From an uncultured Gammaproteobacteria bacterium (GTDB taxonomy: Bacteria; Patescibacteriota; Patescibacteriia; Magasanikbacterales; GWA2-37-8), in assembly GCA_964641245.1 (NCBI GenBank), contig CAZXML010000003.1:17395-81394 (forward strand): 64,000 bases of DNA. Reading direction: 5' to 3'. Shown piece after piece: positions 1,719-60,218 of this stretch (position 1 is the stretch's first letter; each line of letters starts with the position of its first letter). The notes beneath the pieces are model-generated. The model had not been told where the DNA came from and ran no database searches. It worked only from the letters and a program-made list of their open reading frames with translations. Made by a program: the position numbers and the translations under genes.

Positions 1719-1735
1719 ATTTTAAATATTATTTT

Positions 1736-2609: not shown

Positions 2610-2700
2610 ATAATTTATGAGAAAATAATGAGCTTGCTTGATTATTTTTGAATTAAATTATTTATGAGCGAATGAGATTATATGGACTTTAGCCCATATT
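2610..2700. repeat. Conserved promoter/leader element L (degenerate copy) upstream of ndk
   Basis: Shares ...gagcgaatgagattatatggactttagcccatattgtg and aaataat...ctcactcatttcg blocks with the copies at 6541-6633 and 55767-55853. Confidence 0.6.
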
Positions 2701-2731
2701 GTGTTCATGATAATACAAAACACATCAAAAG

Positions 2732-3088: not shown

Positions 3089-3090
3089 AA

Positions 3091-3498: not shown

Positions 3499-3511
3499 AG
3501 TGTTCGTTAAT

Positions 3512-3589
3512 TGTCATCCTGAATGCAATGAAGGATCTCTGTCTCAATCGCCGAACGGACAGAGATTCTTCGCTTCACTCAGAATGACA
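3512..3589. repeat. Family B palindromic MITE-like element (compact copy)
   Basis: tgtcatcctgaatgcaatgaaggatctctgtc + 14 nt + gacagagattcttcgcttcactcagaatgaca. Confidence 0.85.
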
Positions 3590-3598
3590 GGCGGTGAT

Positions 3599-4147
3599 TT
3601 AAACTTTCTCAAAGATTAATGAATAATGATATTCTCCGGCGTCAACTTTATCTATAAACTTTAAATTTGCCTGCGCGGCCAAGCGCATCGCTTCATCCGG
3701 ATTCAACATGGCTTCATCAGCCGGGCCCAATGTTCCCAGTTTTTTTGCCCAATCCACTACCACCAAATAACCACCGGGTTTTAGCATGCGCGCGGCTTCC
3801 TTGATGGCGCCGGCTTTGTTCTTCAGTTGAAATAGTACATTAACATAAAAGCATGCGTCAAGGGAGTTGTCTGGAATGGGAGTTTTGCCCGGCATTTCTA
3901 TGTCGGACCAAACCGTCTGCACGTTGTCGTAACCCTCGCTCCGGGCCATGCTTTTTATGCTGTCCAAAATATTTTTTACCACATCTACGGCGTAAACAAT
4001 GCCTTTTTCACCCACTATTTTAACCGCTGGAAAAACAAAATGGCCGGTGCGTCCGCAACCCAAATCCGCCACCCTTTTTCCTTCGGATAGCGATATCTTT
4101 TCAAAAATTTTATACGGGTCAACTAGGGCGGTGCCGGAGTGAGACAT
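3599..4147 (-). CDS. Class I SAM-dependent methyltransferase
   Basis: 182 aa. Motif I VADLGCGRTGH and motif post-I YAVDV. Confidence 0.7.
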   Translation of the reverse strand: MSHSGTALVDPYKIFEKISLSEGKRVADLGCGRTGHFVFPAVKIVGEKGIVYAVDVVKNILDSIKSMARSEGYDNVQTVWSDIEMPGKTPIPDNSLDACFYVNVLFQLKNKAGAIKEAARMLKPGGYLVVVDWAKKLGTLGPADEAMLNPDEAMRLAAQANLKFIDKVDAGEYHYSLIFEKV

Positions 4148-4227
4148 AAATGATTAAGTGATATGGAAATTAGGAAATAGAGAAATTGATTTCTAAGTTT
4201 CTTAATTTCATTAATTTCTATTATTAT

Positions 4228-4470
4228 TTATCGTACGAATATCTTCCCAACCGTGCCGACTAAAAATCCGTTTATCATGTTGGTAATGGCCAGGAATCCA
4301 AAAAAAATAAAAAGAATGCCGATTAATTTATACATTAAACGGGTACCGCCATTATAACCTAAATGTTCTTCGGCCCAAGCGTTGGTGCCAAAATTCTGAA
4401 TAAACCATTCGGTTTTAAGAACCAGAAATACACCTACGATTACCATTACAATGCCGATAAAATAGCGCAT
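4228..4470 (-). CDS. Small hypothetical membrane protein
   Basis: 80 aa with two predicted TM helices. Confidence 0.4.
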   Translation of the reverse strand: MRYFIGIVMVIVGVFLVLKTEWFIQNFGTNAWAEEHLGYNGGTRLMYKLIGILFIFFGFLAITNMINGFLVGTVGKIFVR

Positions 4471-4630
4471 AACATTAAACTTAACACTAAACTTTCTACT
4501 TAAAATTTTACCATTTTACAGAAAAAAAAGAAAGCCCCCAGGCTATATAACAGATGTCGCCTCAAGTTTAATTTAAAATGGCTAAAAGGCCAATCTGCCT
4601 GCCGGCAGGCAGGTGTTTTATTTAATTAAA

Positions 4631-4666
4631 TTGACAGGGTATAAACGGGTTTGATATATTTAATGT
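4631..4666 (+). promoter_or_regulatory. Sigma70-like promoter (TTGACA-17-ATATAT) for the 4696 ORF
   Basis: ttgacagggtataaacgggtttgatatattt, followed by RBS aaaggagc 6 nt before ATG 4696. Confidence 0.55.
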
Positions 4667-4695
4667 GTTCACAACCCCACAAAAAGGAGCGGCAG

Positions 4696-5034
4696 ATGAG
4701 CGACGACAAGAAAACCGAAAAACCGTTGGAAAACCCGCAGATTTATGTAGAAGTTGTCCCAAGAAATAAGACTAATCCGGCGCATCAGGAGGCTGCAAAA
4801 AACCTTGAGGAAAAACTTGAGGAAAATGTAAAAAAGGCCCTTGAGGAAAATAAGGACGGTGGCAAGGACAAGCAGTTCAGAGCGGCGGAGCAGGAAACGA
4901 AAAAGGCCGGTGAGGCAACCAGCAGCGAGAAAATAAAAAAAATTAAAGTTGGTGTGGGCGGCCATGACGAAGCCGGAGACCATGAAGAACGCGATTGGTC
5001 GGTGAACCCCAAAGAAGGCAAGCCGGCGCCATAG
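4696..5034 (+). CDS. Hypothetical small highly charged (K/E-rich) protein
   Basis: Start MSDDKKTEKP is preceded by AAAGGAG. The antisense ORF 4669..5043 was rejected. Confidence 0.45.
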   Translation: MSDDKKTEKPLENPQIYVEVVPRNKTNPAHQEAAKNLEEKLEENVKKALEENKDGGKDKQFRAAEQETKKAGEATSSEKIKKIKVGVGGHDEAGDHEERDWSVNPKEGKPAP

Positions 5035-5176
5035 CTCTTTCAAGAATTTATTGTTATTTCAGTACAATCCCTCAACCGGGGTTGTTTTTTTAAAAGGCCG
5101 CCACACTCAAACCGCCACAAATCCGAACCACCGTTTCGCTCATCGTCCCCTCCGTCGTGAATGTTGTTTTTCCTTC

Positions 5177-5260
5177 TGGTGCCCGGAAGAGGATTCGAAC
5201 CTCCACACCTTACGGCATATGCACCTCAAGCATACGTGTATACCATTTCACCACCCGGGC
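5177..5260 (-). tRNA. tRNA-Leu (anticodon GAG)
   Basis: Reverse complement is gcccgggtggtgaaatggtat...cttgaggtgcata...long variable arm...ggttcgaatcctcttccgggcacca. It has a 7 bp acceptor, a TTCGAAT T-loop, a long variable arm and anticodon loop ttGAGgt. Confidence 0.8.
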
Positions 5261-6024
5261 TAAAACTTCCGATCTCTGCCCACAATCATTTCCACCTTGC
5301 TATGAGCTAATTTTATTTTTACTTTTATTTCTTTGGACATCTTGCCGTCCGCCTCTACGGCAAACGGTTCCTTGCCGGAAATTATCATTTCTTCAAATGG
5401 AAAGATGCTGGGCTCCTCGTATTTATATCCCCACCAGCCACTCTTTGTCAATGGGCGGATAAAGGCTTCCAGCTTTCCGTCTTGCGGATGCACAACACTT
5501 TGTTCCTTGTCTTTTTTATCTCTTTTCCAAAAAAACGGTTGGAGATTACAAACTATCACTTCCATTTTATCTACGGCGGTTACTTTAAACCGTTCATCAT
5601 AGACAACTTCCAATTTAGCCGGCATGACCTTTAATTGAGAAACAAAATAACGATTGTTCATCCAGCCCACATCCAAAAATTCTTTGCGGCGGCGGGATAA
5701 AACCGTGCACGCTTCTATGCCTACCGGAATACCCAAAACTTCGGCAATAGTATTATTCGGACCAACCGGTAAAAAACCAAATGTGCAGTCGCAAGTGGCG
5801 CTGCGCGAAAGTATCTGCCCAAAAGTGGCGTCGTTGCCGACGATAACAATAGTTTTGGCGCCGCGTTTTATTTCGTCTTCAATAACGGCTTTGGAATCGG
5901 TGTAATTCTGCAAACGCAAAATTTTACCGGCTATGCCGTAATCGGTGAGGATGACTTCCATTGCGTGAATGGTGGAGAGAAAGTTTTTTTTGCGTAAAAA
6001 ATTGTCGTAGATATAAACATACAT
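5260..6024 (-). CDS. Diacylglycerol-kinase catalytic domain family lipid kinase (YegS/BmrU-like)
   Basis: 254 aa. IVIVGNDATFGQIL resembles the GGDGT loop of DAGK_cat. Confidence 0.5.
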   Translation of the reverse strand: MYVYIYDNFLRKKNFLSTIHAMEVILTDYGIAGKILRLQNYTDSKAVIEDEIKRGAKTIVIVGNDATFGQILSRSATCDCTFGFLPVGPNNTIAEVLGIPVGIEACTVLSRRRKEFLDVGWMNNRYFVSQLKVMPAKLEVVYDERFKVTAVDKMEVIVCNLQPFFWKRDKKDKEQSVVHPQDGKLEAFIRPLTKSGWWGYKYEEPSIFPFEEMIISGKEPFAVEADGKMSKEIKVKIKLAHSKVEMIVGRDRKF

Positions 6025-6063: not shown

Positions 6064-6540
6064 CTACGAACCGAATTGCGGCGTGGCATCATCGGTCTTG
6101 CGGAAGGTTTTTGTTTTTACGGATTTCTCGCCAACCTCAATGCCCGGCATGGAAATTTTACCAAATACCAGCGCGCCTGATTCAACTTTTAAATTCTTAA
6201 CATCTATATCACCAACAACTCTGGAAGTGGAAACCAATTCCAGCGTTTCTTTTATTTTCATGTTTCCTTTTACTTCTCCGGCAATGGTGGCGCTACCCGC
6301 CCGGACGTTGGCAATAATTTTTGCGCCCATTTCTACCGTTAAGTGTTTGCTGGTGAATACGCTTCCCGAGACCGTTCCTTTTACCACAATATTTCCTTCC
6401 GAAGCAAAATCACCCTCTACGTTTACCGAAGGACCGACTACGGTTTCCACCTCATCCTGAACATGCTGGTGAGCGTGTTCATTCACTTCCGGTTCATTGC
6501 TTTCTTCTGTGGTTTTTTGAGCAGGCCTTTGGAATATCAT
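6064..6540 (-). CDS. Bactofilin-family cytoskeletal protein
   Basis: 158 aa. Repetitive V.G.V.G beta-helix pattern (GNIVVKGTVSGSV..GAKIIANVRAGSATIAGEVKGNM) with an acidic N-terminus. Confidence 0.6.
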   Translation of the reverse strand: MIFQRPAQKTTEESNEPEVNEHAHQHVQDEVETVVGPSVNVEGDFASEGNIVVKGTVSGSVFTSKHLTVEMGAKIIANVRAGSATIAGEVKGNMKIKETLELVSTSRVVGDIDVKNLKVESGALVFGKISMPGIEVGEKSVKTKTFRKTDDATPQFGS

Positions 6541-6633
6541 ATTCGCGATAAATGAGAGAAATAAGCAAATGTTTTTGATTATTTCCGAGTGAATGAGAAT
6601 ATATGGACAAAGCCCCTATATTTATATATATAA
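6541..6633. repeat. Conserved promoter/leader element L, copy upstream of the bactofilin gene
   Basis: About 85% identical to the reverse complement of 55767-55853. Contains inverted repeat aaataagcaaa-tgtt-tttgattattt (6559-6584) and the TGGACAaagcccctatattt motif. Confidence 0.8.
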
Positions 6634-23211: not shown

Positions 23212-24376
23212 GCGCTTCTATTCCCGGTAATTTCTTCCCACTTAGGTATTCTATCATAGATCCGCCTCCGGTTGAAGCCAGGTCAATATCTCCGATAAGT
23301 CGCAGTTTTTTTAATATTTCTATGGTTTCTCCGCCGCCCGTAACACCAAAGGCTTTTCCTTTTGCCCTGGCGGCAATTAAATGAGCAACGGAATAAGTGC
23401 CATATTCATACGGATGCTGTTCAAAATAACCCACGGCTCCGTTCCAAACCAAGGTTTGCGCTTTTTTTATGTATTTAGAAAATAATTTTATAGTTTTTGG
23501 CCCGATATCAAATATGGATTGGCTTTTATTTCTTAGATTTAAATTTTTAACATCTACCGCGTGCGCCAACTTTCCATCTTTTGTGCCTACTATTACATCT
23601 ACCGGTAAAATCACGCCTCTTTTGGAACAATACTTTAAAATTTCTTTTTTTAAATTTTTATCTACAAATGAACCGCCGACGTTATAACCTTTTGCCCACA
23701 GATAAGTATTTAAAATTCCGCCGCCCACCAAAATATGATTCGCTTTTTTTAACAAACTTTTTAAAACCGGAATTTTGGTTTCTGTTTTTATGCCAGCCAA
23801 AACGACTACAAATGGTTTTCTGGGGCTTTTTAGAACACAACTTAAACCCTCGATTTCTTCTTCCAGCAATAATCCTGCGTAAGACGGCAAATATTTGGTA
23901 ACGCCTGTTACTGAAGCCGCCCAGCGATGAGCAACGGCAAACCCGTCTAACACAAACACATCGGCCAAGCGGGCCAGTTCTTTGGAAAATTGCTCGGAAC
24001 ATTCTTCTTCCCCTTTTACAAAACGGATGTTTTCCAGCATTACTACCGCGCTGGGGAATAATTTCTCTATTTGAATTTTAGCTTTTTTTAAATCTTTAAC
24101 GTCCAGCAATTTAACGTTTTTCTGCAAAAACTTTCCTAACTCGCCCGCTACCGGTTTTAAACTTAATTTTTTATCTACTCCATTTGGCCTGCCCAAATGG
24201 CTGACTAAAATAATCTTAGCGCGTTTTTCCATTAAAAATTTAATGGTCGCCAAGCTTTTTTTTATTTTATAATTATCCAAAACCTTTCCGCCTTTTATTG
24301 GCACATTAAAATCCACGCGCACCAGCACATTTTTATTGGCTAAATTCTTTAGATGTTGAATAGATTTTATTTTCAC
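23195..24376 (-). CDS. pgk: Phosphoglycerate kinase (GTG start)
   Basis: 393 aa. VRVDFNVP N-terminal signature. Confidence 0.95.
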   Translation of the reverse strand: MKIKSIQHLKNLANKNVLVRVDFNVPIKGGKVLDNYKIKKSLATIKFLMEKRAKIILVSHLGRPNGVDKKLSLKPVAGELGKFLQKNVKLLDVKDLKKAKIQIEKLFPSAVVMLENIRFVKGEEECSEQFSKELARLADVFVLDGFAVAHRWAASVTGVTKYLPSYAGLLLEEEIEGLSCVLKSPRKPFVVVLAGIKTETKIPVLKSLLKKANHILVGGGILNTYLWAKGYNVGGSFVDKNLKKEILKYCSKRGVILPVDVIVGTKDGKLAHAVDVKNLNLRNKSQSIFDIGPKTIKLFSKYIKKAQTLVWNGAVGYFEQHPYEYGTYSVAHLIAARAKGKAFGVTGGGETIEILKKLRLIGDIDLASTGGGSMIEYLSGKKLPGIEALSLRA

Positions 24377-24451
24377 ACAAAGTGAGAGAAATTAAAATTT
24401 ATTTTTATTTCCGAACGTGTATAGAATATACCTTAGTATACCATGAAAAGA

Positions 24452-25504
24452 TTACTCCGTTAAATTTTCATACCCAACCTCATCCGGCCACAAATAATGG
24501 TCAAAAGTCCATTCCGCCAAATCACGCGCTTCGCTGAATCTGGCTTCATTGGTGGCGGCGCCGAATATTACCACCGTGATGCCGTGTTTTTTTTCATTGC
24601 TTAAACTGACAACAAAATTATAGCCGGAGTCGTCTATGTAGCCGGTTTTGCCGGCGATGTTTTCCACTTTAAAATTATTGGGAATCCAGTTTGTTAACAG
24701 CCAGTTGGTTGTCCAAACTCTTCTGAGTTTATTGCCGTTTAGCGGTTGGACGTAATACTCTCCGGTCTGCACAGTGGTAAAAATTTTATCAAATTTTAAA
24801 GCGTCTATGAGCAGTTTGGCCGTATCCAGCGCATTGGCCATATTTTTACCGGATAACCCGGTTGGCTCGCTAAAACGGGCCGACGCCAGACGCAAATCTT
24901 TTGCTTTGGCGTTCATCAAACCGACAAACGCCTCTTTGGAAATTCCGGAATTTCTTACTAGCGCGTTAATAGATGCGTTGGAAGAACCAATTAATGCTAC
25001 ATGCCACAAATCTTCCAAGGTGAATTTTTCGCCCACATTAACATGATGATCCCCGGCCACATCGTCGTCCATAATTACGGTTGTTGACGCCCAATCAACC
25101 GGCAAATCCATTAATACCATGGCGGTCATTAATTTAGTAATGCTGGCCAGTGAACGAACTTCGCCGGTATTTTTACTGAATAAAACAGTTTTTGTTTTGG
25201 TGTCTACCACGATCGCCTCGGCGGCCGTGCTGGAACCGGAAAAAACAACCTTATCTTTTGCCAGAGGAACAGCTGGTTTGCTGGCCGGTAAATTTTCCAG
25301 ATAAACATCCCCGCCGGCCATTACTCTTTTACCGCCTGCCTGGCCGGCAGGCAGGCTGGCGGGAAATTTAAGAAAACTAAGATTATTTCCGGGAGCAAAA
25401 AAAACCGAAGAAAAAAATAACAATAAAACGCCGGCCAGCATTATGCCGAAGGATGATAAAAAATCTGTGACTTTGTTGGACATACTTTTCGCGCGGTTTG
25501 TCAT
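24452..25504 (-). CDS. D-alanyl-D-alanine carboxypeptidase (peptidase S11, PBP5/6-like)
   Basis: 350 aa. SxxK (SITK), SxN (SSN) and KTG motifs. N-terminal TM anchor. Confidence 0.8.
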   Translation of the reverse strand: MTNRAKSMSNKVTDFLSSFGIMLAGVLLLFFSSVFFAPGNNLSFLKFPASLPAGQAGGKRVMAGGDVYLENLPASKPAVPLAKDKVVFSGSSTAAEAIVVDTKTKTVLFSKNTGEVRSLASITKLMTAMVLMDLPVDWASTTVIMDDDVAGDHHVNVGEKFTLEDLWHVALIGSSNASINALVRNSGISKEAFVGLMNAKAKDLRLASARFSEPTGLSGKNMANALDTAKLLIDALKFDKIFTTVQTGEYYVQPLNGNKLRRVWTTNWLLTNWIPNNFKVENIAGKTGYIDDSGYNFVVSLSNEKKHGITVVIFGAATNEARFSEARDLAEWTFDHYLWPDEVGYENLTE

Positions 25505-25559
25505 GCTGAACTTGTTTCAGCATCTTTCGTGTAGATCCTGAAACAAGTTCAGGATGACA
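25499..25559. repeat. Family A palindromic element (ATGACA terminus is the dacA-like start codon)
   Basis: tgtcatgctgaacttgtttcagcatc ... gatcctgaaacaagttcaggatgaca. Confidence 0.85.
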
Positions 25560-25562
25560 GTA

Positions 25563-26132
25563 TTATTCTAAATCTAAATTTGTGATATACGGGTGTTTGT
25601 GCAATTCCGGGTAATTCGGCAATTCTTCCAAACTATTTAAACCCAGATGCCTTAGATAATCCATGGTAACTTCGTACGCCGGCAAGAGGTTGGCGCTGTC
25701 TTCGTTTTCTTTTACCAAACCACGCAACATTAAATTGCGTAAAATAAGACTGCAATTTACCCCGCGGATTTGTTCCAGTTCCGGCTTGGTGATTGGCCCG
25801 CAATAGGAAACTACCGTTAAAGTTTCCAGCTGCGGCCTGGTTAACTCTCCCGAAACTTCTGCTTTCAAAAAATTCTCGGATACTTCTTTATTGTCCGCGC
25901 TGGCCACCATTTGCCACTCGTCTCCGTTTTGTAAAACAGTTACACCGGAATCTTCGTTATTATATTTTAATTGTATCTCTTTTAATAATTCCAACACTTC
26001 TTCTTCGCGGTTTTTGCCGCCCCGAGGCGGCACCCCGCCCGCCGGCGGTGGCAAAACAACCACTATTTTTTTTACGGATAAAGGTTTGGAAGCGACAAAT
26101 AATATGGATTCAATTTTTGATTTATTGGACAT
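25563..26132 (-). CDS. scpB: Segregation and condensation protein B
   Basis: 189 aa. IESILFVASKPLS. Contains an in-frame GC-rich hairpin insertion encoding PPPAGGVPPRGGKN (about 25995-26045). Confidence 0.8.
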   Translation of the reverse strand: MSNKSKIESILFVASKPLSVKKIVVVLPPPAGGVPPRGGKNREEEVLELLKEIQLKYNNEDSGVTVLQNGDEWQMVASADNKEVSENFLKAEVSGELTRPQLETLTVVSYCGPITKPELEQIRGVNCSLILRNLMLRGLVKENEDSANLLPAYEVTMDYLRHLGLNSLEELPNYPELHKHPYITNLDLE

Positions 26133-26133
26133 G

Positions 26134-26844
26134 CTAGTTTTTAGTAACTAATAAATCTTCAAACGCGTTTACCTGCCGGAAACGAACCGATTGCTGTTTG
26201 ACTAATTCCAGAATGGCTAAAAAACTGACTATGACTTCGGTTTTATTTTGCGCCGAGGACAGCAAATTTTTAAAGCTGAATTCTTTTCCGCTTTTTAATA
26301 ACTCACGGATGGAGTCTATTTTTTGCTTGATGGAAATAGAATGATCGATGCTTACCTTTGGCAACGGCTCCAGCGGTTTTAAGCGGTTAAGCAGAAAAAC
26401 CATGGAGTTGTACAAATTATTCGTAGTGGCATTGACCGGTAAAACAAATTCTTTAGACTTTATCGGCGGCTCAATTCTGCCGTAAGCAATTTTATTGGCC
26501 TCCCACAAACTATTTACGGTCTTACTGGCCTCTACATACTGTTTGTATAATTTTAACTGATCCGCCAGCCCCGGACCAGTATCCTCTTCTTCGGGAAACG
26601 CGTACTGCAACAAGCTATGCGATTTTAAATAAATAAGCCGGGCGGCAACAACCAAAAAATCTGCCAGTTCTTCGGGACGATTTTTTTCCAGCTTGTCTAA
26701 ATAGGAAAAAAACTGCTCGGTAACTTTGGCTAAGGCAATTTCGGTGATGCTTAACTTTTCCTGATCAACCAGTTGCAACAATAAATCCAAAGGCCCTTCA
26801 AATTTTTCCAGTTTTAGTTCTTGCATATAACTTACTTTTGTCAT
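26134..26844 (-). CDS. scpA: Segregation and condensation protein A
   Basis: 236 aa. LELLLQLVDQEKLSITEIALAKVTEQF. Confidence 0.8.
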   Translation of the reverse strand: MTKVSYMQELKLEKFEGPLDLLLQLVDQEKLSITEIALAKVTEQFFSYLDKLEKNRPEELADFLVVAARLIYLKSHSLLQYAFPEEEDTGPGLADQLKLYKQYVEASKTVNSLWEANKIAYGRIEPPIKSKEFVLPVNATTNNLYNSMVFLLNRLKPLEPLPKVSIDHSISIKQKIDSIRELLKSGKEFSFKNLLSSAQNKTEVIVSFLAILELVKQQSVRFRQVNAFEDLLVTKN

Positions 26845-26910
26845 CCTGAACTTGTTTCAGGATCTTTCGAATCTGACGGCGATAGATGCTGAAACAAGTT
26901 CAGCATGACA
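26839..26910. repeat. Family A palindromic element (ATGACA terminus is the scpA start codon)
   Basis: tgtcatcctgaacttgtttcaggatc ... gatgctgaaacaagttcagcatgaca. Confidence 0.85.
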
Positions 26911-26921
26911 ACTACCTTGCC

Positions 26922-30663: not shown

Positions 30664-30686
30664 ATTTTAATTGTTTACGCAACATA

Positions 30687-30770
30687 CCCCTCTCTCTGTC
30701 TCTCCCCTAAAAGGGGAGAGGACGATTGAGTGAATTGACATTGCCTGTCGTGGTCGTTCCTCCCCGCTTT
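30687..30770. repeat. Family E palindromic element (cccctctctctgtctctcccctaaaaggggagagg) plus a related tcgttcctcccc half
   Basis: Other copies at 43515-43625 and 45792-45886. Confidence 0.8.
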
Positions 30771-32170: not shown

Positions 32171-32534
32171 TGTCATCCTGAATGAAATGAAGGATCTCTG
32201 TCTTGTCCAATTAACTGATTATACAAGTCCTGCCATCTAAAATTTTGTTTTGTTATGATTTCCACTTTTCTATTACGCTTCCAGCCTTTCAATTCTTTTT
32301 CTCTTTTAATAGCATCATTTATATTAAAAAAGTGTTCATAATATACCAATTTTTTACACTTATATTTTTTCGTAAAGCCATCGATTATTCCGGCTCTGTG
32401 TTCTTCTACTCGTCTAATAAGGTCATTTGTCACTCCTATATAATACACAACTTACACTAGCCATTATGTATACATAATAATTGTGATTGGCCATAAGAAA
32501 CAGACAGAGATTCTTCGCTTTGCTCAGAATGACA
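32171..32534. mobile_element. Family B element, full-length form: its terminal inverted repeats enclose a GIY-YIG ORF
   Basis: Left arm tgtcatcctgaatgaaatgaaggatctctgtc (32171-32202) and right arm gacagagattcttcgctttgctcagaatgaca (32503-32534). These are the same arms that bound the about 80 bp MITE copies. The ORF stop TGA lies inside the left arm. The right arm is followed by a 3x atgggaca tandem. Confidence 0.6.
32173..32448 (-). CDS. GIY-YIG nuclease family protein (UPF0213/YhbQ-like), N-terminally truncated
   Basis: YYIGVTNDLIRRVEEHRAG = YxG...TxDLxRRxxEH core. GTG start with in-frame TAA two codons upstream. The first beta-strand (GIY) is missing. Confidence 0.65.
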   Translation of the reverse strand: MYYIGVTNDLIRRVEEHRAGIIDGFTKKYKCKKLVYYEHFFNINDAIKREKELKGWKRNRKVEIITKQNFRWQDLYNQLIGQDRDPSFHSG

Positions 32535-32578: not shown

Positions 32579-33934
32579 CTAAACGACTTTCGCAAATATA
32601 CATTTCAAATACTCCCCTTCGGTAAAAGCCACCAATTCCGGATGGTCTATGCCGTGGGTATAGGTTTCCAAAACCTGCAAAGTCTGGCGCGCCCGGCCGG
32701 CTGATTCGGATAACATATATCTAAAATCAGATAAAGTAACGTGGGCCGAACAAGAGGCTGTAATCAGTACGCCACCTGGTGATAATAATCGTAAAGACGC
32801 TTCGTTTATTTTTTTATAACCAATTAATCCTTCCTGAACTTTGCGCCTGTCTTTTACAAAGGCCGGCGGATCCAGGATGATGATGTCAAATTGACTTGAA
32901 CCTGACCTCACCCTGCCCTCTCCTCGCAGGAGAGGATTTATCGACTCCTTCTCCTTTGAGGAGAAGGTTGGGATGAGGTCTGGATTATTCAAATACTGCT
33001 TCACATCCCCGCAAATAAATTCGCATTTTTTTAAATCTAATTTATTAAGTTTTACGTTTTCTTGGGCCAATTCCAAGGCGCTCTGAGAAGAATCCACGCT
33101 AATCACATGCTTGGCTCCCCCGCCCAAAGCATAGACGCTAAACCCGCCGGAATAAGAAAAACAGTTCAAAACATTTTTATCTTCCGCGTATTTCATCAAC
33201 GCCTGTCTTTTATCGCGCTGGTCCAGAAAAAAACCGGTTTTTTGCCCGCCAATCACATCCACCCAGAACTTAAATCCGTTTTCAATAATTTTTATTCTCT
33301 CAGGCACTTTGCCATACAATAGGCCTGCGAGCGCTGTTTTATTTGTCATTCCGACGTCGAAGGAGGAATCTCTGTCTGGTTGTTTCGCGGAAGGGTGAGA
33401 CAGAGATCCCTCGTCGGCTACGGCCTCGCTCGGGATGACAATGTGCCGCTTAAGCCTCTGCGCCACATCCGATCTTTCATAAATACCGGTTGGTTTTAAG
33501 ATTTTTTTTAAGGCGTCAACGATTTTATCTTTCCACACTTCCATGCCCTGCGTATGAAACTGCAACACCAAATAATCCGCGTATTTGTCTACAATCAACC
33601 CGGGCAACAAATCGTTTTCACTGTGAACCATGCGGTAAGAATCCGTATTTTTACTAGCCACAAAATTCTTTCTGATGGCATAGGCCTGATTAATTCTTTT
33701 TTCAAAAAATTTGTCATCCACCGTTTCCTGTTCGTCCCAACTCCAAAGCCGCACCGCTATTTGCGAATAAGAATTAAAATATCCCTGCGCCAGAAATTGA
33801 CCTTCTTCGTTTACCAAAATCACCGCTTCGCCGCTTTTTAGGCCTTCGGGAATCTGTTTGAGCGCGCCAGAAAATACCCACGGGTGACGGCCAAGGATAG
33901 GACCAATTCTTTGTTTTTGAACAACCAACTTCAT
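32579..33934 (-). CDS. rlmI: 23S rRNA m5C methyltransferase RlmI-like (PUA + class I MTase) with two in-frame palindromic-repeat insertions
   Basis: Start MKLVVQKQRIGPILGRHPWVF. FDIIILDPPAF and SAM-binding GGFS motifs. Insertions at 32903-32979 and 33344-33440. Confidence 0.75.
   Translation of the reverse strand: MKLVVQKQRIGPILGRHPWVFSGALKQIPEGLKSGEAVILVNEEGQFLAQGYFNSYSQIAVRLWSWDEQETVDDKFFEKRINQAYAIRKNFVASKNTDSYRMVHSENDLLPGLIVDKYADYLVLQFHTQGMEVWKDKIVDALKKILKPTGIYERSDVAQRLKRHIVIPSEAVADEGSLSHPSAKQPDRDSSFDVGMTNKTALAGLLYGKVPERIKIIENGFKFWVDVIGGQKTGFFLDQRDKRQALMKYAEDKNVLNCFSYSGGFSVYALGGGAKHVISVDSSQSALELAQENVKLNKLDLKKCEFICGDVKQYLNNPDLIPTFSSKEKESINPLLRGEGRVRSGSSQFDIIILDPPAFVKDRRKVQEGLIGYKKINEASLRLLSPGGVLITASCSAHVTLSDFRYMLSESAGRARQTLQVLETYTHGIDHPELVAFTEGEYLKCIFAKVV
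32903..32979. repeat. Family F palindromic element inside rlmI (in-frame)
   Basis: gacctcaccctgccctctcctcgcaggagagg ... ctccttctcctttgaggagaaggttgggatgaggtc. Encodes PTFSSKEKESINPLLRGEGRVRSGSS. Confidence 0.75.
33344..33440. repeat. Family B2 palindromic element inside rlmI (in-frame)
   Basis: tgtcattccgacgtcgaaggaggaatctctgtc ... gagacagagatccctcgtcggc...cgggatgaca. Related copy at 35529-35624. Confidence 0.8.
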
Positions 33935-34019
33935 CATGATAAATGGATTATTAATAATTGAGAGTATACCAAACAAAAACACCCAGCGCAATGGCCGGGT
34001 GTTTTCTTAATATAAATTT

Positions 34020-43517: not shown

Positions 43518-43625
43518 TACTTCGTCGTTCCTCCCCCTTTTAGGGGGAGGGCAGGGTGGGGGTATTTGTTCGTGGTACAACCGCCGATATACCCCTCTCT
43601 CTATCTCTCCCCTAAAAGGGGAGAG
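43515..43625. repeat. Two family E palindromic elements (ccccctttta ggggg / cccctctctctatctctcccctaaaaggggagag)
   Basis: Seen directly. Same family as 30687 and 45792. Confidence 0.8.
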
Positions 43626-43652
43626 AACCCCACCGAGTCCAGTCGGCTCTTA

Positions 43653-45323: not shown

Positions 45324-46182
45324 TATGTTGGATTTTGATTTGCTAAAGGCGCATGCCATAAAAAAACCAAAAGAATTTTTATACTCTCATCCCGAATATC
45401 GTTTATCAGTTTGGCAAAAACTGCGTTTAAAATATTTTCTCTCCCTGCGCAAAAAGGGCTATTCCGTAGCCGTCATTACCAAGCATAAAGAATTTTACGG
45501 CTTGGATTTTTTTGTGAATAAACACGTTTTAATCCCCCGCCCCGACACCGAGTTGATGGTGGCAGAAGCGATCGAAGAAATTAAAAAAAATGATAAGATA
45601 ATTTTAGTTGATGTTGGTACCGGAAGCGGGTGCATACCAATTTCTATTTTAAAAAATATACCAAACCAAATACAAACATTTGCGACCGATATTTCGAACG
45701 CGGCTTTGCGAGTAGCGAAAAAAAATGCCCGAATACATAATGTGAACATTAAATTTTTCCACGGTAACTTGCTTGAACCAATTTTCAAAAACCCCTCTCT
45801 CTGTCTCTCCCCTTATAGGGGAGAGAGGAACGAACTCCTCTCTGTAGTTCCCTCCCCTATAAGGGGAGGGGCGAAGGGTGGGGTTTTCATCACCGCCAAC
45901 CTCCCCTACCTTACCAAACAACAATTTCAATCCGAACCGAGCATTCAAAAAGAACCAAAAATCGCACTCACGGCAAAAAATAACGGCTTGGCTTTATACG
46001 AAGAATTATTTAATCAAATAAAAAATGCCGGTCTGACAGCAACTATACTTACAGAAATCGACCCTTCTCAAACCGATGCAATCTCCCAACTTATAAACCA
46101 ATATCTTCCCGGCTCAAAAATTGAAATAAAAAAAGACCTCGCCGGGCGAGATCGTTTAGTAAAAATTGTCATGTCATCCTGA
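45307..46182 (+). CDS. prmC: Release factor glutamine methyltransferase PrmC/HemK with in-frame repeat insertion
   Basis: VLIPRPDTE and VGTGSGCI motifs. The NPPY box reads NLPY. A 30-aa insertion ([30 protein letters not shown]) is encoded by a family E palindrome. The stop codon is supplied by a family A repeat. Confidence 0.8.
45792..45886. repeat. Family E palindromic element pair inside prmC (in-frame)
   Basis: cccctctctctgtctctccccttataggggagagg ... ttccctcccctataaggggaggggcgaagggtgggg. Confidence 0.8.
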
Positions 46183-46237
46183 ACTTGTTTCAGGATCTGT
46201 CACCAACCAAAGATGCTGAAATAAATTCAGCATGACA
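46173..46237. repeat. Family A palindromic element
   Basis: tgtcatcctgaacttgtttcaggatc ... gatgctgaaataaattcagcatgaca. Confidence 0.85.
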
Positions 46238-46243
46238 ATTGAT

Positions 46244-47323
46244 TTAATTCGTCACCAAAACATTAACATTGGCCGGCACCACTTCCACCCACGTATTGCC
46301 GGGAATTAAAACTACTTCTCTCCCTATGGGAGATCCCCCGGAGGGGGATTTTTCATAAGTGTAAAATCTGGTGCGGGCGGTAAGTGAACTTTTCTTCCAG
46401 GTTCCATAAATAACCGCGCCTTTCTTTAAAATTATCGCCTCACCGCTACCAACAGTGGTAACATCCACTCGCCCCTTATCGTCGCCATTTATTTCTCTTA
46501 CGCCGGTAATTTGCACTAAAATATTCCGCGCCCGAACCTCGGACCCGTCTTTGTCTGTTTCTTTAATACCATTTCTGGCGCGGCTGTAATTTAAATTTTT
46601 GGCGTCATACGTCCAAACGACTTCGTAACTTTCGCTAAAAGGAATTTTTAACCCGCCTTTTTTACCAATTGTCTGCCCCACCAAACGGGAATACTTCCAG
46701 GCTTTGTCCGCGGTAAACAAAGAACTTTTGTTGCCGTATTTATTAATAATTTCTAACCAATTACCATTTCCGGTATAAAGATTGTGCGGCGCCGGCCGTT
46801 CTTGGCTTCTATTGTAATACTGTCCCCAAAAAAATTCGTTGGCATCAAAAATATTTCTTACTTTAATTAAATTTAAAGCTTCCGGCGAACCGCCCGAGTG
46901 CATATATAATCCCCGGCCGTATTCCTGCATCCAGTCCAAAAAGTAAGCACGGGCGCTGCGCACCGGGCCGACTTCCGCCACCGCTTGCTTACTGTCAAAA
47001 ATAGCCAGGTAGCGGGTAAGGCCGCCTTCTACCGGCGCTTCGTAAACTATTTTGGCTTTGGAAACTCCGGATTCCAGACGAGCGTCTGGATGATTGTCTA
47101 CCATTACTCCCACCACCTGCAAAACTGAATCTACTTTTTTATTCACCGCTTTTCCGTCTAACGGATTTACATATTTAACGGCGGTGATTGTAAAATCGTT
47201 ATTGCTTATAGCCTGCAATGATTCTTTGGAAGGATATAAATAAAAAAACACCACCCCAATTCCGATTACGGAAATTAGAATTAAAACAATGATTGGCGGA
47301 ATTGGCCAGGGCTTACGCTTCAT
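46244..47323 (-). CDS. DUF3048-like (YerB-type) lipoprotein/secreted protein
   Basis: 359 aa. N-terminal TM. APVEGGLTRYLAIF motif. Confidence 0.45.
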   Translation of the reverse strand: MKRKPWPIPPIIVLILISVIGIGVVFFYLYPSKESLQAISNNDFTITAVKYVNPLDGKAVNKKVDSVLQVVGVMVDNHPDARLESGVSKAKIVYEAPVEGGLTRYLAIFDSKQAVAEVGPVRSARAYFLDWMQEYGRGLYMHSGGSPEALNLIKVRNIFDANEFFWGQYYNRSQERPAPHNLYTGNGNWLEIINKYGNKSSLFTADKAWKYSRLVGQTIGKKGGLKIPFSESYEVVWTYDAKNLNYSRARNGIKETDKDGSEVRARNILVQITGVREINGDDKGRVDVTTVGSGEAIILKKGAVIYGTWKKSSLTARTRFYTYEKSPSGGSPIGREVVLIPGNTWVEVVPANVNVLVTN

Positions 47324-47334
47324 AATTATAAAGC

Positions 47335-47419
47335 TGTCATCCTGAACTTGTTTCAGGATCTTCGTTATTGTTCCGTAGATGCTGAAACAAGTAGATCCTG
47401 AAACAAGTTCAGGATGACA
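47335..47419. repeat. Family A palindromic element (three-hairpin variant)
   Basis: tgtcatcctgaacttgtttcaggatc..gatgctgaaacaagtagatcctgaaacaagttcaggatgaca. Confidence 0.85.
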
Positions 47420-47423
47420 TTAA

Positions 47424-47466
47424 GAAAACAGACTATACAATTTATAGTATAGCCTGTTTTTAAAAT
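47424..47466. terminator. Bidirectional terminator after rplY
   Basis: aacagactatacaatttatagtatagcctgtt with T-runs on both strands. Confidence 0.6.
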
Positions 47467-47477
47467 TTATTAAAGGT

Positions 47478-48197
47478 TTATTTCTTTTCCTCTTTCTTTT
47501 CTTCCTTCTTAGCTCCGGCTTCCGGTTTAGCGGCGCCTTCAGCGGCAGCTCCTTCTGCGCCCTCTTCTTCTTTCTTCTTGCCGGCAGATTCAATCTTGCT
47601 TAAGTCAACCGGTTTGGAAGCTGTTTCCATGGCCTTAATTTCATCTTCGGTTAAGGCGGCGGTGGCTTTGGCGATTAAATCTTCAGCATGAGGACTGGTG
47701 ATGGTGATTCCGGCCGGTACAACCAAATCTTTAATTTTGATAACATCGTCGAATGTTTTTAAAGCGGTCAAATCAACATCGATGTGGGAAACCAAATCTT
47801 TCGGCAAACATTTTACTTCCACATTTTCCACACTGCGCATTAAAGTTCCGCCTTGAGCTTTAATAACCGATGATTCGCCCACAAAGCGTAACTCTACCGT
47901 AGCAGTCATAACTTTGTTCATGTCGATACGGCGCAAGTCAACGTGCACAATGCGGTCGGAAACCGGATCGTACTGAATATCCTGAATCAAAACTTTTCCG
48001 TCGGCTTTGTCGCCCAAAAGCAAATCAATCAAACTGGCCTCGCCGGCTTCGGCGTAAAGTTTTACAAACTCATCATGATTTAAAGCAACGGAAGTGGCCG
48101 GCGCGCCCATACCGTAAACTACGGCCGGGATAAGGGTCTTGGTGCGCATTTTTTGTCCTTGTTCTGTTCTGGCGGTGGCGGATATTTTGAGGGACAT
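47478..48197 (-). CDS. rplY: 50S ribosomal protein L25 / general stress protein Ctc with acidic/K-rich C-terminal tail
   Basis: MSLKISATARTEQGQKMRTKTLIPAVVYG. Confidence 0.85.
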   Translation of the reverse strand: MSLKISATARTEQGQKMRTKTLIPAVVYGMGAPATSVALNHDEFVKLYAEAGEASLIDLLLGDKADGKVLIQDIQYDPVSDRIVHVDLRRIDMNKVMTATVELRFVGESSVIKAQGGTLMRSVENVEVKCLPKDLVSHIDVDLTALKTFDDVIKIKDLVVPAGITITSPHAEDLIAKATAALTEDEIKAMETASKPVDLSKIESAGKKKEEEGAEGAAAEGAAKPEAGAKKEEKKEEKK

Positions 48198-48222
48198 ATG
48201 ATAATATTATTTTGTCATGCTG

Positions 48223-48270
48223 AATTTATTTCAGCATCTACGTAGATCCTGAAACTAGTTCAGGATGACA
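48223..48270. repeat. Family A palindromic element
   Basis: tgtcatgctgaatttatttcagcatc..gatcctgaaactagttcaggatgaca. Confidence 0.85.
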
Positions 48271-48593
48271 GTTAAAAAATTTGGACTGTTGATAAATTTA
48301 TGCCCTTCAATTGTTTCATCAATCGTAAGGGGCGGCAGTTTGTATAATTTTTGGACGTCTTTTAAACTTAGGTCAGTAATCATTCCTACCGTGCTCATGC
48401 CTTTGGGCATCATCATTACCATGGCCATAAAGTGGCTTTGGCAATGCGCGCAGGTAAAATGGACAAATCTGGCGTCGCTTTCATTTATAAACAACTTGCC
48501 GGCAGATTTGTAGTCATGACCGCAAATCGGACAATGGCTAATCAGTTTTAAAGTTTTTCGCCAAGAATCGGCTTTGCTATTGTTTGGCAACAT
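48255..48593 (-). CDS. Hypothetical zinc-ribbon protein
   Basis: 112 aa. CPICGH...CAHCQSH Cys4-type motif. Confidence 0.4.
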   Translation of the reverse strand: MLPNNSKADSWRKTLKLISHCPICGHDYKSAGKLFINESDARFVHFTCAHCQSHFMAMVMMMPKGMSTVGMITDLSLKDVQKLYKLPPLTIDETIEGHKFINSPNFLTVILN

Positions 48594-55766: not shown

Positions 55767-55853
55767 CTAAAATATAGGGGCTTCGCCACATATATACTCA
55801 TTCGCTCGAAAATAATCAAAAACATTTGATTATTTCTCTCACTCATTTCGTAT
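55767..55853. repeat. Conserved promoter/leader element L, copy abutting the secE start codon
   Basis: Inverted repeat aaataatcaaa-aaca-tttgattattt at 55810-55835. ctcactcatttcgtatATG. Confidence 0.8.
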
Positions 55854-56042
55854 ATGATCAACGCAATCAAAAACTACTTTGTCGGGGCTTTTCAGGAAAT
55901 GAGAAAAGTTACCTGGCCTTCCAAAAGCCAGACTATAAATTACAGTGTATTGGTAATCGCTTTAAGCGTCGGCATGGCTCTATTTTTCGGCTTATTGGAT
56001 TACATATTTAGTTGGGGCGTTACAAATTTATTTTTAAAGTAA
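55854..56042 (+). CDS. secE: Preprotein translocase subunit SecE
   Basis: 62 aa. Single TM. Sits upstream of nusG. Confidence 0.8.
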   Translation: MINAIKNYFVGAFQEMRKVTWPSKSQTINYSVLVIALSVGMALFFGLLDYIFSWGVTNLFLK

Positions 56043-56048: not shown

Positions 56049-56189
56049 TGTCATCCTGAACTTGTTTCAGGATCTCTGTCCGTGAGTTGTCATTCCCGCC
56101 CGAGAGCGGGAATCCAGTCGACGATTGTCTGGATTCCCAATCAAGTTGGGAATGACATGCGCAGATGCTGAAATAAATTCAGCATGACA
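56049..56189. repeat. Family A element with a nested family D element (56088-56157)
   Basis: tgtcatcctgaacttgtttcaggatctctgtccgtgagt[tgtcattcccgcccgagagcgggaatccag...ggattcccaatcaagttgggaatgaca]tgcgcagatgctgaaataaattcagcatgaca. Confidence 0.8.
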
Positions 56190-56748: not shown

Positions 56749-56773
56749 TTAAATAAAGAAAGTGATCGCGGAC

Positions 56774-56912
56774 TGTCATTCTGAGCACAGCGAAGAATCC
56801 CTCTCTGTCATTCTCGCCAAAGCGGGAATCCAGTGTCCGATTGTCTGGATTCCCATTGTTATGGGAATGACAATTAAACGGACAGAGATCCTTCACTACG
56901 TTCAGGATGACA
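56774..56912. repeat. Family B element (inverted) with a nested family D element (56816-56872)
   Basis: tgtcattctgagcacagcgaagaatccctctc[tgtcattctcgccaaagcgggaatccag...ggattcccattgttatgggaatgaca]attaaacggacagagatccttcactacgttcaggatgaca. Confidence 0.8.
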
Positions 56913-56963
56913 AGTACCGGCTTCTCGGTCATAATTCTTAATTCATAATTCTTACTTAAATCT

Positions 56964-57389
56964 ATGGCAAAAAAATTAATGGCGCAAATCAAATTGCAGA
57001 TTGTCGGCGGAGCCGCTAACCCGGCCCCACCAGTCGGCCCGGCTTTGGGCCAGCACGGCGTAAATATCCAGGGCTTCTGTAAGGAATTCAACGAAAAGAC
57101 CCAGGATAAAAAAGGCGAAGTAGTGCCGGTAATCATTTCCGTTTACGAAGACCGCAGTTTCAGTTTCATAATGAAAACTCCTCCGGTTCCGGAATTGATT
57201 AAAAAAGCGGCGGGTATAGAAAAAGGTTCTGCCAAACCTTTGCAAGACAAAGTTGGCAAAATCACCAAAGCCCAAGTTCGCCAAATCGCCGAAAAGAAAA
57301 TGCCGGACTTAAACTGCCACACCGTAGAAGCCGCCATGAGTATGGTGGAAGGTACGGCCAGAAATATGGGTGTTACCATTGAGGGATAA
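56964..57389 (+). CDS. rplK: 50S ribosomal protein L11
   Basis: [32 protein letters not shown]. Confidence 0.95.
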
Positions 57390-57429
57390 CACGAATGCGC
57401 TTGAGCGCCACAAATAACACAAATAAAAA

Positions 57430-57462
57430 ATGAAGACGTCCCGGTTGGGGCGTCTTTTAGTT
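57430..57462. terminator. Rho-independent terminator
   Basis: agacgtcccggttggggcgtct + tttagtt. Confidence 0.7.
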
Positions 57463-57484
57463 GTGCTGTTTTAACGGAAATGTG

Positions 57485-58042
57485 TTACGGACAAACGCCG
57501 AGCGTGTCGCCGTGCGCCAGATGGGCGGGAACGGCTGGTGTGCCGACACAGATGTTGTGAAGATTGGCCGGATTGCCGGGTGGGTAATGGCAAAGAAGGG
57601 CCTTACCGGACGCGCAGGATTCATCATCCCCGTCGTCGCCGTCTCCGTCGCAGACGCACTGGCCGTCCACGCAGATTTGACCTTCGGGGCAGTCGTCGTC
57701 GGAGTAGCACCCCGGAACGCCGGCATCGGAAACGCCGACAACACCACCATCATGAACTTCGCCAACTCCTCCGTCAGAAGTGCCGATGACGACATTCGCA
57801 TCAGCAGTGTCAACAGTATTGCTGTCGGGCAGGCTGGCATCAGCGTTCATTTCACCTCCGTCAACCTGGGTCATGCTAGCATCGTCCTGGCTCTGCGTCG
57901 CATCCATACTATCTGCCGGCACCATGCCGTCAGCCAGCAATACCCCGCCATCCAGGTCATAGCCACCAGGAGGACTTTGGCCACAGCCAGCCATGAGCAC
58001 AAAAGCAAAGAGCGTTGTCATTCGGTTCATCATCGTTCGCAT
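57485..58042 (-). CDS. GC-rich acidic Cys-rich lipoprotein (Asp/Gly-rich, about 62% GC)
   Basis: Signal + lipobox LMAGC. AGGAG 6 nt before ATG. CPEGQICVDGQCVCDGDGDDG. Confidence 0.5.
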   Translation of the reverse strand: MRTMMNRMTTLFAFVLMAGCGQSPPGGYDLDGGVLLADGMVPADSMDATQSQDDASMTQVDGGEMNADASLPDSNTVDTADANVVIGTSDGGVGEVHDGGVVGVSDAGVPGCYSDDDCPEGQICVDGQCVCDGDGDDGDDESCASGKALLCHYPPGNPANLHNICVGTPAVPAHLAHGDTLGVCP

Positions 58043-58147
58043 CGGATTCTCCTTTTTGGTTCTGTGTTCGGAACAGGTTTGGGTTTATTCTATATAGCTC
58101 CACATATAACCTCACTCGCTCGGAAGTAGCCAAGCATGCTTGGCACT

Positions 58148-60122: not shown

Positions 60123-60218
60123 ATTTTTTGGGATTTCACGAATGGGCTTGTGCCCCACGAATTATTCGAATACGATTAGCATTATTCGTGGCGCTCAAGC
60201 GCATTCGCATTATCCAAA

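Follow-up and report, generated by a model that had tools for sequence, protein, structure and literature searches.

Is the palindrome that stands inside another palindrome beside nusG a fresh arrival at this place, and to what kind of element does it belong? The locus lies in a 64,000-nucleotide stretch of contig CAZXML010000003.1 (hereafter the window), in which an earlier sequence-only reading had described a family D palindrome inserted into a family B palindrome. The palindrome-in-palindrome arrangement adjoining nusG is confirmed, with family D located between both arms of family B at positions 56774–56912. We consider it probable that these elements are doublets of hairpins of the Ssn-related motif (SRM) type, gene-less relatives of units in which two such motifs enclose an ssn gene (SRM-ssn-SRM), and that D arrived as part of a recurrent composite of D within B arms, designated B[D]B.

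The Ssn proteins are small single-domain GIY-YIG nucleases that bind the NTS hairpin repeat, and only as single-stranded DNA (Chenal et al. 2025, Nat Commun 16:2388, PMC11893778). The NTS consensus is CGTCATTCCCGCGMAVGCGGGAATCYRG and contains the Neisseria repeat dRS3. The ssn genes are usually located between such motifs, and binding of NTS/SRM by Ssn is reported for Neisseria and Wolbachia (PMC11893778).

NusG homologues place the window in the Patescibacteria, close to the Magasanikbacteria. Relatives with NusG proteins 92–100% identical come mostly from Hainich groundwater metagenomes, and their nucleotide identity to the window is 77–92%. The host is an ultra-small groundwater bacterium. 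Loci used for comparison are designated by L numbers.

Architecture of the nested element

The nested element can be divided into the arms of the host B element and the hairpins of D:

56774–56799, plus strand: left SRM-type hairpin of the host family B element, with a TGTC head, an ATTCT/AGAAT stem with tandem G.A, and a C tail
56774–56805: host B left arm in full, TGTCATTCTGAGCACAGCGAAGAATC + CCTCTC, read from sequence
56800–56805, plus strand: CCTCTC, the leftover of the host B left inner arm, which together with the TGTC of D gives CTCTGTC
56806–56872: family D as a whole, 67 nt
56806–56833, plus strand: left hairpin of D, TGTCATTCTCGCCAAAGCGGGAATCCAG, NTS-like (TGTCAT TCTCGC CAAA GCGGGA ATCCAG)
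56834–56844, no strand: central spacer of D, TGTCCGATTGT, the place of the ssn gene in full-length units (L086)
56845–56872, minus strand: right hairpin of D, CTGGATTCCCATTGTTATGGGAATGACA, a minus-strand SRM (TGTCAT TCCCAT AACA ATGGGA ATCCAG)
56873–56886, no strand: right inner arm of the host B, ATTAAACGGACAGA, kept in B-type elements and B[D]B composites elsewhere
56887–56912, minus strand: right SRM-type hairpin of the host family B element, GATCCTTCACTACGTTCAGGATGACA, a 'cc-type' arm

The left B hairpin is a 'tt-type' arm, which is positioned 5' of the ssn gene in full-length B units. The same arm lies beside an intact ssn gene in L027, and the ortholog of the window arm is L001:1050–1075. 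The CCTCTC junction recurs in L121, L124, and L037. The left boundary of D is ambiguous by 4 nt, because TGTC is shared with the end of the host CTCTGTC arm. D had been placed correctly inside B, but its proposed start at 56816 was wrong by 10 nt.

The second D copy of the window lies in a family A element, and the B element is itself enclosed by a smaller hairpin:

56049–56189, plus strand: first composite, A[D]A, with A arms at 56049–56074 (CCTGAA type) and 56164–56189 (GCTGAA type) and D at 56088–56157
56764–56773, no strand: left arm of an older small hairpin (…CGCGGAC), whose right arm is 56913–56925; B sits in its loop

Counting the pre-existing small hairpin, B[D]B at nusG–rplK forms three concentric palindromes. 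The two composites do not flank a secE-nusG pair, as had been suggested; they occupy the secE|nusG and nusG|rplK spacers, and nusG alone lies between them. The separation given as 600 bp is 649 bp between the D copies from end to start, and 718 bp from start to start. The right D hairpin at 56845–56872 differs from that of the other copy (56129–56157) by a compensatory change of A-T to T-A. The D core GGGAATCCAGN5GATTGTCTGGATTCCC has exactly two occurrences in the 64 kb and no matches in 100 shuffles. Both composites fold as single-stranded DNA far better than shuffled sequences, with z of −4.9 and −6.05.

Empty, filled, and nested alleles at nusG–rplK

Alignment of the window with L001 and L163 reveals different occupancy of the nusG–rplK spacer. 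In L163 the site is empty, and its sequence, CGATCGCGGAT-AAAA-ATCCGGCTTCTCGATCG, folds into a small hairpin (−8.7 kcal/mol). In L001, a 69-nt B doublet without D is located exactly in the AAAA loop (CGCGGAT|TGTCAT...ATGACA|AAAATCCGG), and the window carries B[D]B. B is also present at this site in L164 and L166, the contigs of which end inside the B arm. The junctions of CGCGGAT|AAAAATCCGG in L163 and CGCGGAT[B]AAAATCCGG in L001 are clean, and apart from an ambiguity of 1 nt no bases are duplicated. [quoted passage not shown] Since L001 has B without D and L163 has neither, D is a separable unit. The site appears to have passed from an empty hairpin to B in the hairpin loop and then to B[D]B, without target duplication.

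Composites as repeat units

The inner junctions of the window B[D]B, CTC|TGTCAT and ATGACA|ATTAAACRGACAGAGATCC, are both common to composites at the unrelated loci L121, L124, and L037. The B[D]B composites at other loci are 93–94% identical to that of the window, whereas the flanking genes of L001 and the window are only 77–92% identical. The window A[D]A is also found as the same composite, with shared junctions, at a different locus in L015/L130. The B spacer of L001, GGGGCGTTAAGG, was not found split around D. Because the junctions are shared across loci and the L001 spacer is unsplit, the nesting is likely older than these copies. The composites B[D]B and A[D]A appear to be repeat families in their own right, spreading as units. 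Most likely, D reached nusG–rplK within a B[D]B unit, either by interior replacement of the resident B or by a new landing at the same point, a new hop of D into this B being the less likely course. The nested insertion described in the sequence-only reading is right in outline, as D is separable from B, but two independent local insertions of D do not agree with junctions that are shared with other loci.

It is hardly credible that the nested structure is a chimeric repeat join produced by metagenome assembly. Repeats of this kind do break assemblies, as in the L164/L166 contigs that end in a B arm, but contigs assembled independently from other samples show these composites again, with identical junctions (L121, L124, L015/L130). 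Furthermore, window segments 1091–5498, 24063–26914, and 45978–48572, which lie outside the nested region, were recovered at 99.3–100% identity in independent JGI (sample 3300010391) and Logan assemblies.

One unit type in the hairpin families of the window

Families A, B, and D, together with two further families of the window, share one build, consisting of a (T/C)GTC head, a hairpin with an AT…AT stem, and a C tail. The units stand in convergent pairs, each made of two hairpins that differ from one another and point their heads outward, and about 18 such doublets (TGTCAT-hairpin-ATC, spacer, GAT-hairpin-ATGACA) were catalogued in the 64 kb. Family A pairs ATCCTGAA with ATGCTGAA (hairpin types CCTGAA and GCTGAA), family B pairs ATTCTGAG...AGAAT with ATCCTGAA...GGAT (TTCTGAG and TCCTGAA), and family D pairs ATTCCCGC with ATTCCCA (TCCCGC and TCCCA). 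The hairpins of A and D have 8-bp stems starting with AT and loops of 4–7 nt. The B-type stems, formed by 5 bp, a tandem G.A, and 2 bp, are a variant of the AT-start pattern, and B-type elements carry complementary inner arms ATCTCTGTCCGT...ACGGACAGAGAT.

The window was scanned for GTCAT followed by a perfect stem of at least 6 bp starting at AT and by C, a definition adopted after the published SRM string had given no matches. The scan identified 21 perfect hairpins, compared with 0.6 expected in random sequence, and all of them stand in convergent pairs. GTC 5' and C 3' of the palindrome, which together orient the hairpin, are present in all catalogued window families. Judging from these sequence features, families A, B, and D belong to the superfamily of CGTC/TGTC-tagged repetitive extragenic palindromes (REPs), which corresponds to NTS and the SRM. 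An Rfam scan of the window at gathering thresholds returned two tRNAs only, and the repeats match no known RNA family.

The doublets occupy operon-internal spacers, 4–15 nt from the neighbouring open reading frames (ORFs), with which they are probably co-transcribed. There is no convincing bias of doublet polarity relative to gene direction (co-directional B 4/5, A 5/7).

A gene for an RlmI-like PUA and S-adenosylmethionine methyltransferase (32579–33991, minus strand) contains a whole in-frame SRM doublet at 33344–33440 (…IVIPSEAVADEGSLSHPSAKQPDRDSSFDVGMTNK…). A second in-frame insert of the same gene, at ~32780–32830, belongs to a CCCCTC…GGGGAG hairpin family (…INPLLRGEGRVRSG…). These inserts recall the Rickettsia palindromic elements. 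An extra hairpin repeat family without the TGTC head, ACCCCTCTCTCTGTCTCTCCCCTAAAAGGGGAGAG, has four copies in the window (30684–30723, 43589–43628, 45789–45873).

Nuclease genes between matching arms

One full-length B-type unit is located in the window:

32171–32534, minus strand: full-length B-type unit, B arms around a frameshifted small GIY-YIG (Ssn-like) gene (PF01541)

The pseudogene matches Pfam PF01541 with E = 1.5e-13 after bridging of the frameshift. Intact GIY-YIG ORFs of ~95 aa are enclosed by B arms in L027, where the product is 75% identical to the window pseudogene, by NTS-type arms in L086, immediately followed by two D copies, and by TTGCGAG-type arms in L061. A GIY-YIG gene between matching arms is therefore found in four independent cases (the window, L027, L086, and L061), each with its own type of arm. 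L086 is the only case in which the ssn gene lies directly beside D; the ssn genes of L027 and L061 are 2–4 kb from their D copies.

The NTS-type arms around the gene in L086 and the B arms around those of L027 and the window indicate that D is the gene-less form of NTS-ssn-NTS', and B that of another unit. The full-length units have the layout SRM-ssn-SRM, and B and D may be considered gene-less versions, similar to MITEs or to REPINs, of two different units, each parent unit probably with its own nuclease clade. The nested D takes the apical spacer of the B doublet, which is exactly the place of the ssn gene in the full-length unit.

In L086 (6180–6830), two D copies in tandem come after the intact ssn unit. 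The 18-nt stretch gatttagtttttggaggt stands after each tandem D and also before the ssn unit, and the tandem Ds are a local tandem duplication of the element with its flank.

Relation to published repeat systems

Ssn cuts a few nt 5' of the hairpin; GTC 5' of the palindrome is needed for cutting and the 3' C for binding, and the loop is irrelevant (PMC11893778). The authors of that study likened NTS-ssnA-NTS to an insertion sequence, and built by hand a degenerate SRM string from 29 genomes of 4 phyla (PMC11893778). The left D hairpin resembles NTS (PMC11893778) in its (C/T)GTCAT head, ATTCCCGC/GCGGGAAT stem, and ATCCAG tail, and the stems and flanks of the left hairpins of both window copies are the same as those of NTS or nearly so. 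Of the half-sites of D relatives, 17 are exact NTS and 34 are within one mismatch, and 51 of 284 match the SRM string. The 5' GTC and 3' C of the palindrome are kept in every window family. Small single-domain GIY-YIG genes of ~95 aa lie between two such hairpins in the window (32171–32534, frameshifted) and, intact, in L086, L027, and L061, and the nuclease clades differ by hairpin type. Unlike in the published system, the host is a Patescibacterium (Magasanikbacteria-like), outside the coverage of that study, nearly all copies are gene-less convergent heterodimers, and one doublet is nested in another doublet type, with the composite itself recurring.

The superfamily of CGTC-tagged REPs was defined by Di Nocera, De Gregorio, and Rocco (2013, BMC Genomics 14:522, PMC3733652). 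These repeats have an unpaired CGTC/TGTC head, a stem of 8–9 bp starting with A-T, T-A, a short loop, and a 3-nt tail; they are mostly dimers, often heterodimers, with structured spacers that have complementary ends (PMC3733652). Dimers inside larger palindromes were described from H. neapolitanus and in-frame intragenic copies from Rickettsia (RPE-4/RPE-6), and Neisseria dRS3 was counted in the superfamily, which was concluded to lack a dedicated transposase (PMC3733652). In the survey the family turned up in five phyla, none of them of the candidate phyla radiation (CPR). The window elements agree with this superfamily (PMC3733652) in the CGTC/TGTC head, AT-start stem, heterodimers, complementary-ended spacers, embedding in palindromes, and in-frame copies. 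The hairpins of A and D have the structure of CGTC-tagged REPs, B-type hairpins are a variant of it, and multicopy inverted heterodimers are present in the window. In contrast, neither a dimer inside a dimer of another family nor an orthologous series of empty, filled, and nested sites was reported in the survey (PMC3733652), and the B-type stems have the tandem G.A interruption and longer loops. Nesting and CPR hosts are covered by neither PMC11893778 nor PMC3733652. The elements add new members, from a CPR bacterium, to a superfamily already known, that of the CGTC-tagged REPs and Ssn-related motifs.

REPINs, and the related bacterial interspersed mosaic elements (BIMEs), are reportedly associated with REP-associated tyrosine transposases (RAYTs), as described by Bertels and Rainey in 2011 and Nunvar in 2010. 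In a REPIN, two inverted REP hairpins with a short spacer are the replicating unit, and an action on hairpins of single-stranded DNA has been proposed. The window elements share with them the inverted hairpin pair with a short spacer and the single-copy enzyme gene flanked by repeats. It is nevertheless very unlikely that the elements are strict REPINs moved by a RAYT, an HUH/Y1 transposase, as are GTAG-tagged REPs, with the GIY-YIG genes as bystanders. The REPIN/BIME architecture of two inverted hairpins, short spacer, high copy number, and intergenic position speaks for such a mechanism, and in Di Nocera 2013 the possibility that RAYTs mobilise CGTC REPs was not decided (PMC3733652). However, Ssn proteins were shown to bind exactly such a motif (PMC11893778). 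The heads are TGTC/CGTC throughout and not GTAG, and the nuclease between matching arms, in each of the four independent cases with its own arm type, is a hydrolytic GIY-YIG enzyme and not an HUH tyrosine transposase.

In the neisserial intergenic mosaic elements (NIMEs), reportedly described by Parkhill in 2000, RS units are strung in a linear mosaic between copies of dRS3. The arrays studied here are similar to NIMEs in that dRS3/NTS hairpins bracket other short intergenic repeats near variable genes, whereas they differ in the strict concentric nesting of two complete doublets and in the copying of the composite as a unit. Hairpins are also the targets of IS1397/ISKpn1, which insert in BIME loops, of IS110-family elements, which insert in REPs, and of class C group II introns, which insert after terminators. 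The apical insertion is shared with these elements, as B lies in the AAAA loop of the small hairpin and D in the apical spacer of B. Nevertheless, those elements are kilobase-sized and have their own recombinase or reverse transcriptase, whereas the elements of the window have 60–140 nt and are gene-less.

Turnover of the spacers around nusG

Each of the nusG-adjacent spacers has about seven states among a dozen relatives, some of them with a bAvd/IVP gene. After secE, the left junction tttaac|TGTCAT has three occupants, which are A[D]A (window), one TTGCGAG-type hairpin on its own (L107), and a doublet of the TCCGA type (L162). Wherever else L001 and the window can be compared, their spacers differ as well. 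A B doublet (L001:2977–3057) is located between queA and yceG where the window has none, and a B doublet at L001:1940–2020 lies in frame inside queA, which encodes 417 aa, as against 387 aa in the window, where a different short repeat is found. The proposed insertion hotspot at nusG is not borne out, because both spacers are hypervariable but so are all other comparable L001-window spacers. Spacer turnover is general and not nusG-specific. Exact-protein look-ups of three other window genes, made for more polymorphic sites, led only to the same genome again, 99.3–100% identical and without indels.

The bAvd/IVP (23S-rRNA-intervening-sequence-protein) gene lies between nusG and rplK in L098 (2103–2459) and L107 (2181–2537), flanked by 'cttcagacttcggac' repeats.

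Distribution and context of D

A species-level scan with one genome per species identified 89 D copies, most of which stand alone. Their hosts are metagenome-assembled genomes of CPR lineages, Chloroflexi, Thermodesulfobacteriota, Verrucomicrobia, Nitrospirae, Melainabacteria, and Gammaproteobacteria, and one nanoarchaeon. The scan of metagenomes for the CPR subfamily of D yielded 53 loci, of which ~40 are unique. Convergent arms of A-, B-, or TCCGA-type hosts enclose about 12 of these 40 copies, and 3–4 have a one-sided host arm. A strict automatic count over both scans classes 8 copies as nested, 12 as half, and 79 as alone. Of the non-coding DNA of the window, ~5% consists of spacers within SRM doublets, relative to which 12 nested copies of 40 (~30%) correspond to P = 3.6e-7. 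The position of D inside other repeats, which the sequence-only reading had described, is thus enriched, and this enrichment between other SRM arms was seen in Magasanikbacteria-like genomes. D prefers the interior of a convergent pair of SRM hairpins and no particular sequence motif.

The target motif suggested for D, CTCTGTC, was correctly observed upstream of both window copies, 6 nt away from the first and overlapping the second. The string originates from the B-type inner arm ATCTCTGTCCGT...ACGGACAGAGAT. It is also present in B-type hosts without D, and in the flanks of ~92 D copies only T at −1 and, weakly, Y at −2 are shared, so that it cannot be kept as a target motif.

These observations bear on an alternative in which D is a small transposon that hopped twice, independently and in situ, into the palindromes by nusG, guided by CTCTGTC to a D-specific hotspot, which we regard as unlikely. 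D is separable, as L001 has B without it. In both D copies of the window, and also in L015, L033, L051, L137, and L146, CTCTGTC(C) precedes D by 0–6 nt, and nested D copies keep nearly one orientation relative to the host (~13 to 1, by eye). However, the string belongs to the host arm irrespective of D, A-type hosts that lack it carry nested D (L131, L136, L148, L153), and standalone D copies have no such flank. Local hops also disagree with the junctions common to composites at unrelated loci, with the L001 spacer that is not found split around D, and with the differences in all other comparable L001-window spacers.

An exact NTS-type D doublet is carried inside a ~150-nt element with ends like terminal inverted repeats (TIRs), tatacttttgca…tgcaaaactata, of which the Deltaproteobacteria bacterium YD0425bin50 has 16 or more copies (L010–L013, L030, L035, L040, L044, L063, L067, L075, L077, L079, L080, L088, L092). 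No transposase ORF was found in or beside this element, which looks like a ~150-nt TIR-type MITE with D as a passenger. The loops of D hairpins are often occupied in turn, by small palindromes (GCCTGCCTGCCGGCAGGCAGG) or by a longer arm (…CCCG…CGGGATAAACTCCAGC), in the right hairpin in L111, L114, L122, L146, and L154, and in the left hairpin in L020, L041, L050, L084, and L150. The D loop of L050 holds a complete extra NTS hairpin, which is a third nesting level.

Possible mechanism and function

The manner in which the elements might move can be proposed by analogy to the published biochemistry. An Ssn nuclease supplied in trans would nick extruded hairpins at their outer boundaries, marked by TGTC. 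In a doublet, the strand that Ssn can cleave in each hairpin would set the cut at the outer boundary of the element, one per strand, and nicking of hairpins extruded in replication or repair could release the element or allow its exchange. Loops and spacers in the single-stranded state would be the obvious places for integration or exchange. As GIY-YIG enzymes are not known to join DNA, completion of the event would fall to host repair or template switching. The microhomology of TGTC where B meets D would agree with this, but is only a hint.

It is possible, although we lean towards doubting it, that SRM doublets are active non-autonomous mobile elements driven by hydrolytic GIY-YIG single-stranded DNA nucleases in a transposition-like process without an HUH or DDE enzyme. 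The elements would be copied or exchanged into single-stranded loops and into the spacers of other SRM doublets without target duplication, and the resulting 'Russian-doll' composites would spread as units. SRM families would also replace one another at a fixed junction, as the three occupants of tttaac|TGTCAT after secE in three relatives suggest. If so, the empty, B, and B[D]B series of the Magasanikbacteria would be early natural evidence of Ssn-linked repeat movement.

Several observations weigh against SRM doublets related to ssn units, or against their movement. The left hairpins of the two window D copies miss the NTS consensus at up to one mismatch, as the loop of the first is 2 nt longer and the second has 2 substitutions and 1 insertion. 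The SRM string HGTCWYN(0-2)YYVSBRHN(0-5)WNVSBRGN(0-2)RNCYNB has no matches in the window. There is no intact ssn gene in the 64 kb of the window, and no ssn gene near D at the 53 metagenomic D loci. For the GIY-YIG proteins, NCBIfam gave nothing informative, and the sole PDB match, to the UPF0213 protein 1zg2, is weak (E = 0.008). GIY-YIG enzymes hydrolyse DNA and are not known to join strands, so that a role in transposition is only putative. The direction of change at nusG–rplK is based on parsimony over three or four lineages, and D could have been gained in the window or lost in L001. In the second filled/empty pair, the B doublet L001:2977–3057 that is absent at window ~59280, the empty site has no obvious hairpin. 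Targeting of hairpin loops, which holds at nusG–rplK, was therefore rejected as a general rule.

Alternatively, the elements may be kept mainly for a function, either as Ssn cleavage marks on incoming single-stranded DNA that limit replacement of the flanked gene, or as intercistronic mRNA hairpins that act as a stabiliser or attenuator, with nesting as modular build-up by recombination between short shared arms. This is rather unlikely as the main explanation, although compatible with mobility. The two D doublets bracket nusG in the NTS-gene-NTS layout of Neisseria (PMC11893778), the doublets stand in operon spacers 4–15 nt from ORFs, where co-transcription is probable, and the sequence of the stems, not merely their structure, is conserved across phyla. 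Furthermore, D is kept at apparently orthologous sites across species in metagenomic loci (L127/L133/L129 and L132/L142), the flanks of which are far more diverged (by eye), which suggests constraint or homogenisation. In contrast, presence and absence shift between close relatives at every examined spacer, which is more like turnover, in-frame copies lie inside genes (in the window and in L001 queA), and no intact nuclease gene was seen in the window.

The study of the Ssn/NTS system (2025) left open the mobility of the repeats and their role outside Neisseria, two questions to which the nusG locus and its relatives contribute. Through them, the system is extended to the Patescibacteria (CPR), with tiny genomes crowded with at least five hairpin families, each paired with its own nuclease clade as far as the arms and genes indicate. 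The series of empty, single, and nested sites and the fixed-junction composites make repeat mobility and landing sites testable. For annotation, many short CPR 'hypothetical proteins' and in-frame gene inserts are these repeats, and SRM-type repeats also break metagenome assemblies.

Other repeats and neighbouring sequences

Assembly GCA_964363145.1 (CAYIHE01; L015, L033, L107) is titled 'uncultured Gammaproteobacteria', a label that looks wrong, as the NusG on CAYIHE010000094 is 93% identical to that of the window and the same repeat families are present. L051, L083, and L027 are probably mislabelled likewise.

A ~70-nt cassette (…ggggcttcgcc…atatatactcattcgctcgaaa…ctcactcatttcgtat-ATG) is positioned directly upstream of the start codons of different genes in different relatives. 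It is located in the window at 55789–55858, 6536–6605 (inverted), and 2657–2699, upstream of rplK in L167–L169, and beside D in L114, and may be a portable promoter or 5' untranslated region cassette.

A high-GC segment (57457–58130) lies between rplK and queA, and 41-nt inverted repeats are found at 57384–57424 and 60175–60215. The segment contains an Asp/Gly/Cys-rich, lipoprotein-like ORF of 185 aa (57485–58042, minus strand), which is absent from L001. In L101/L102, a different gene of 227 aa is located at its place.

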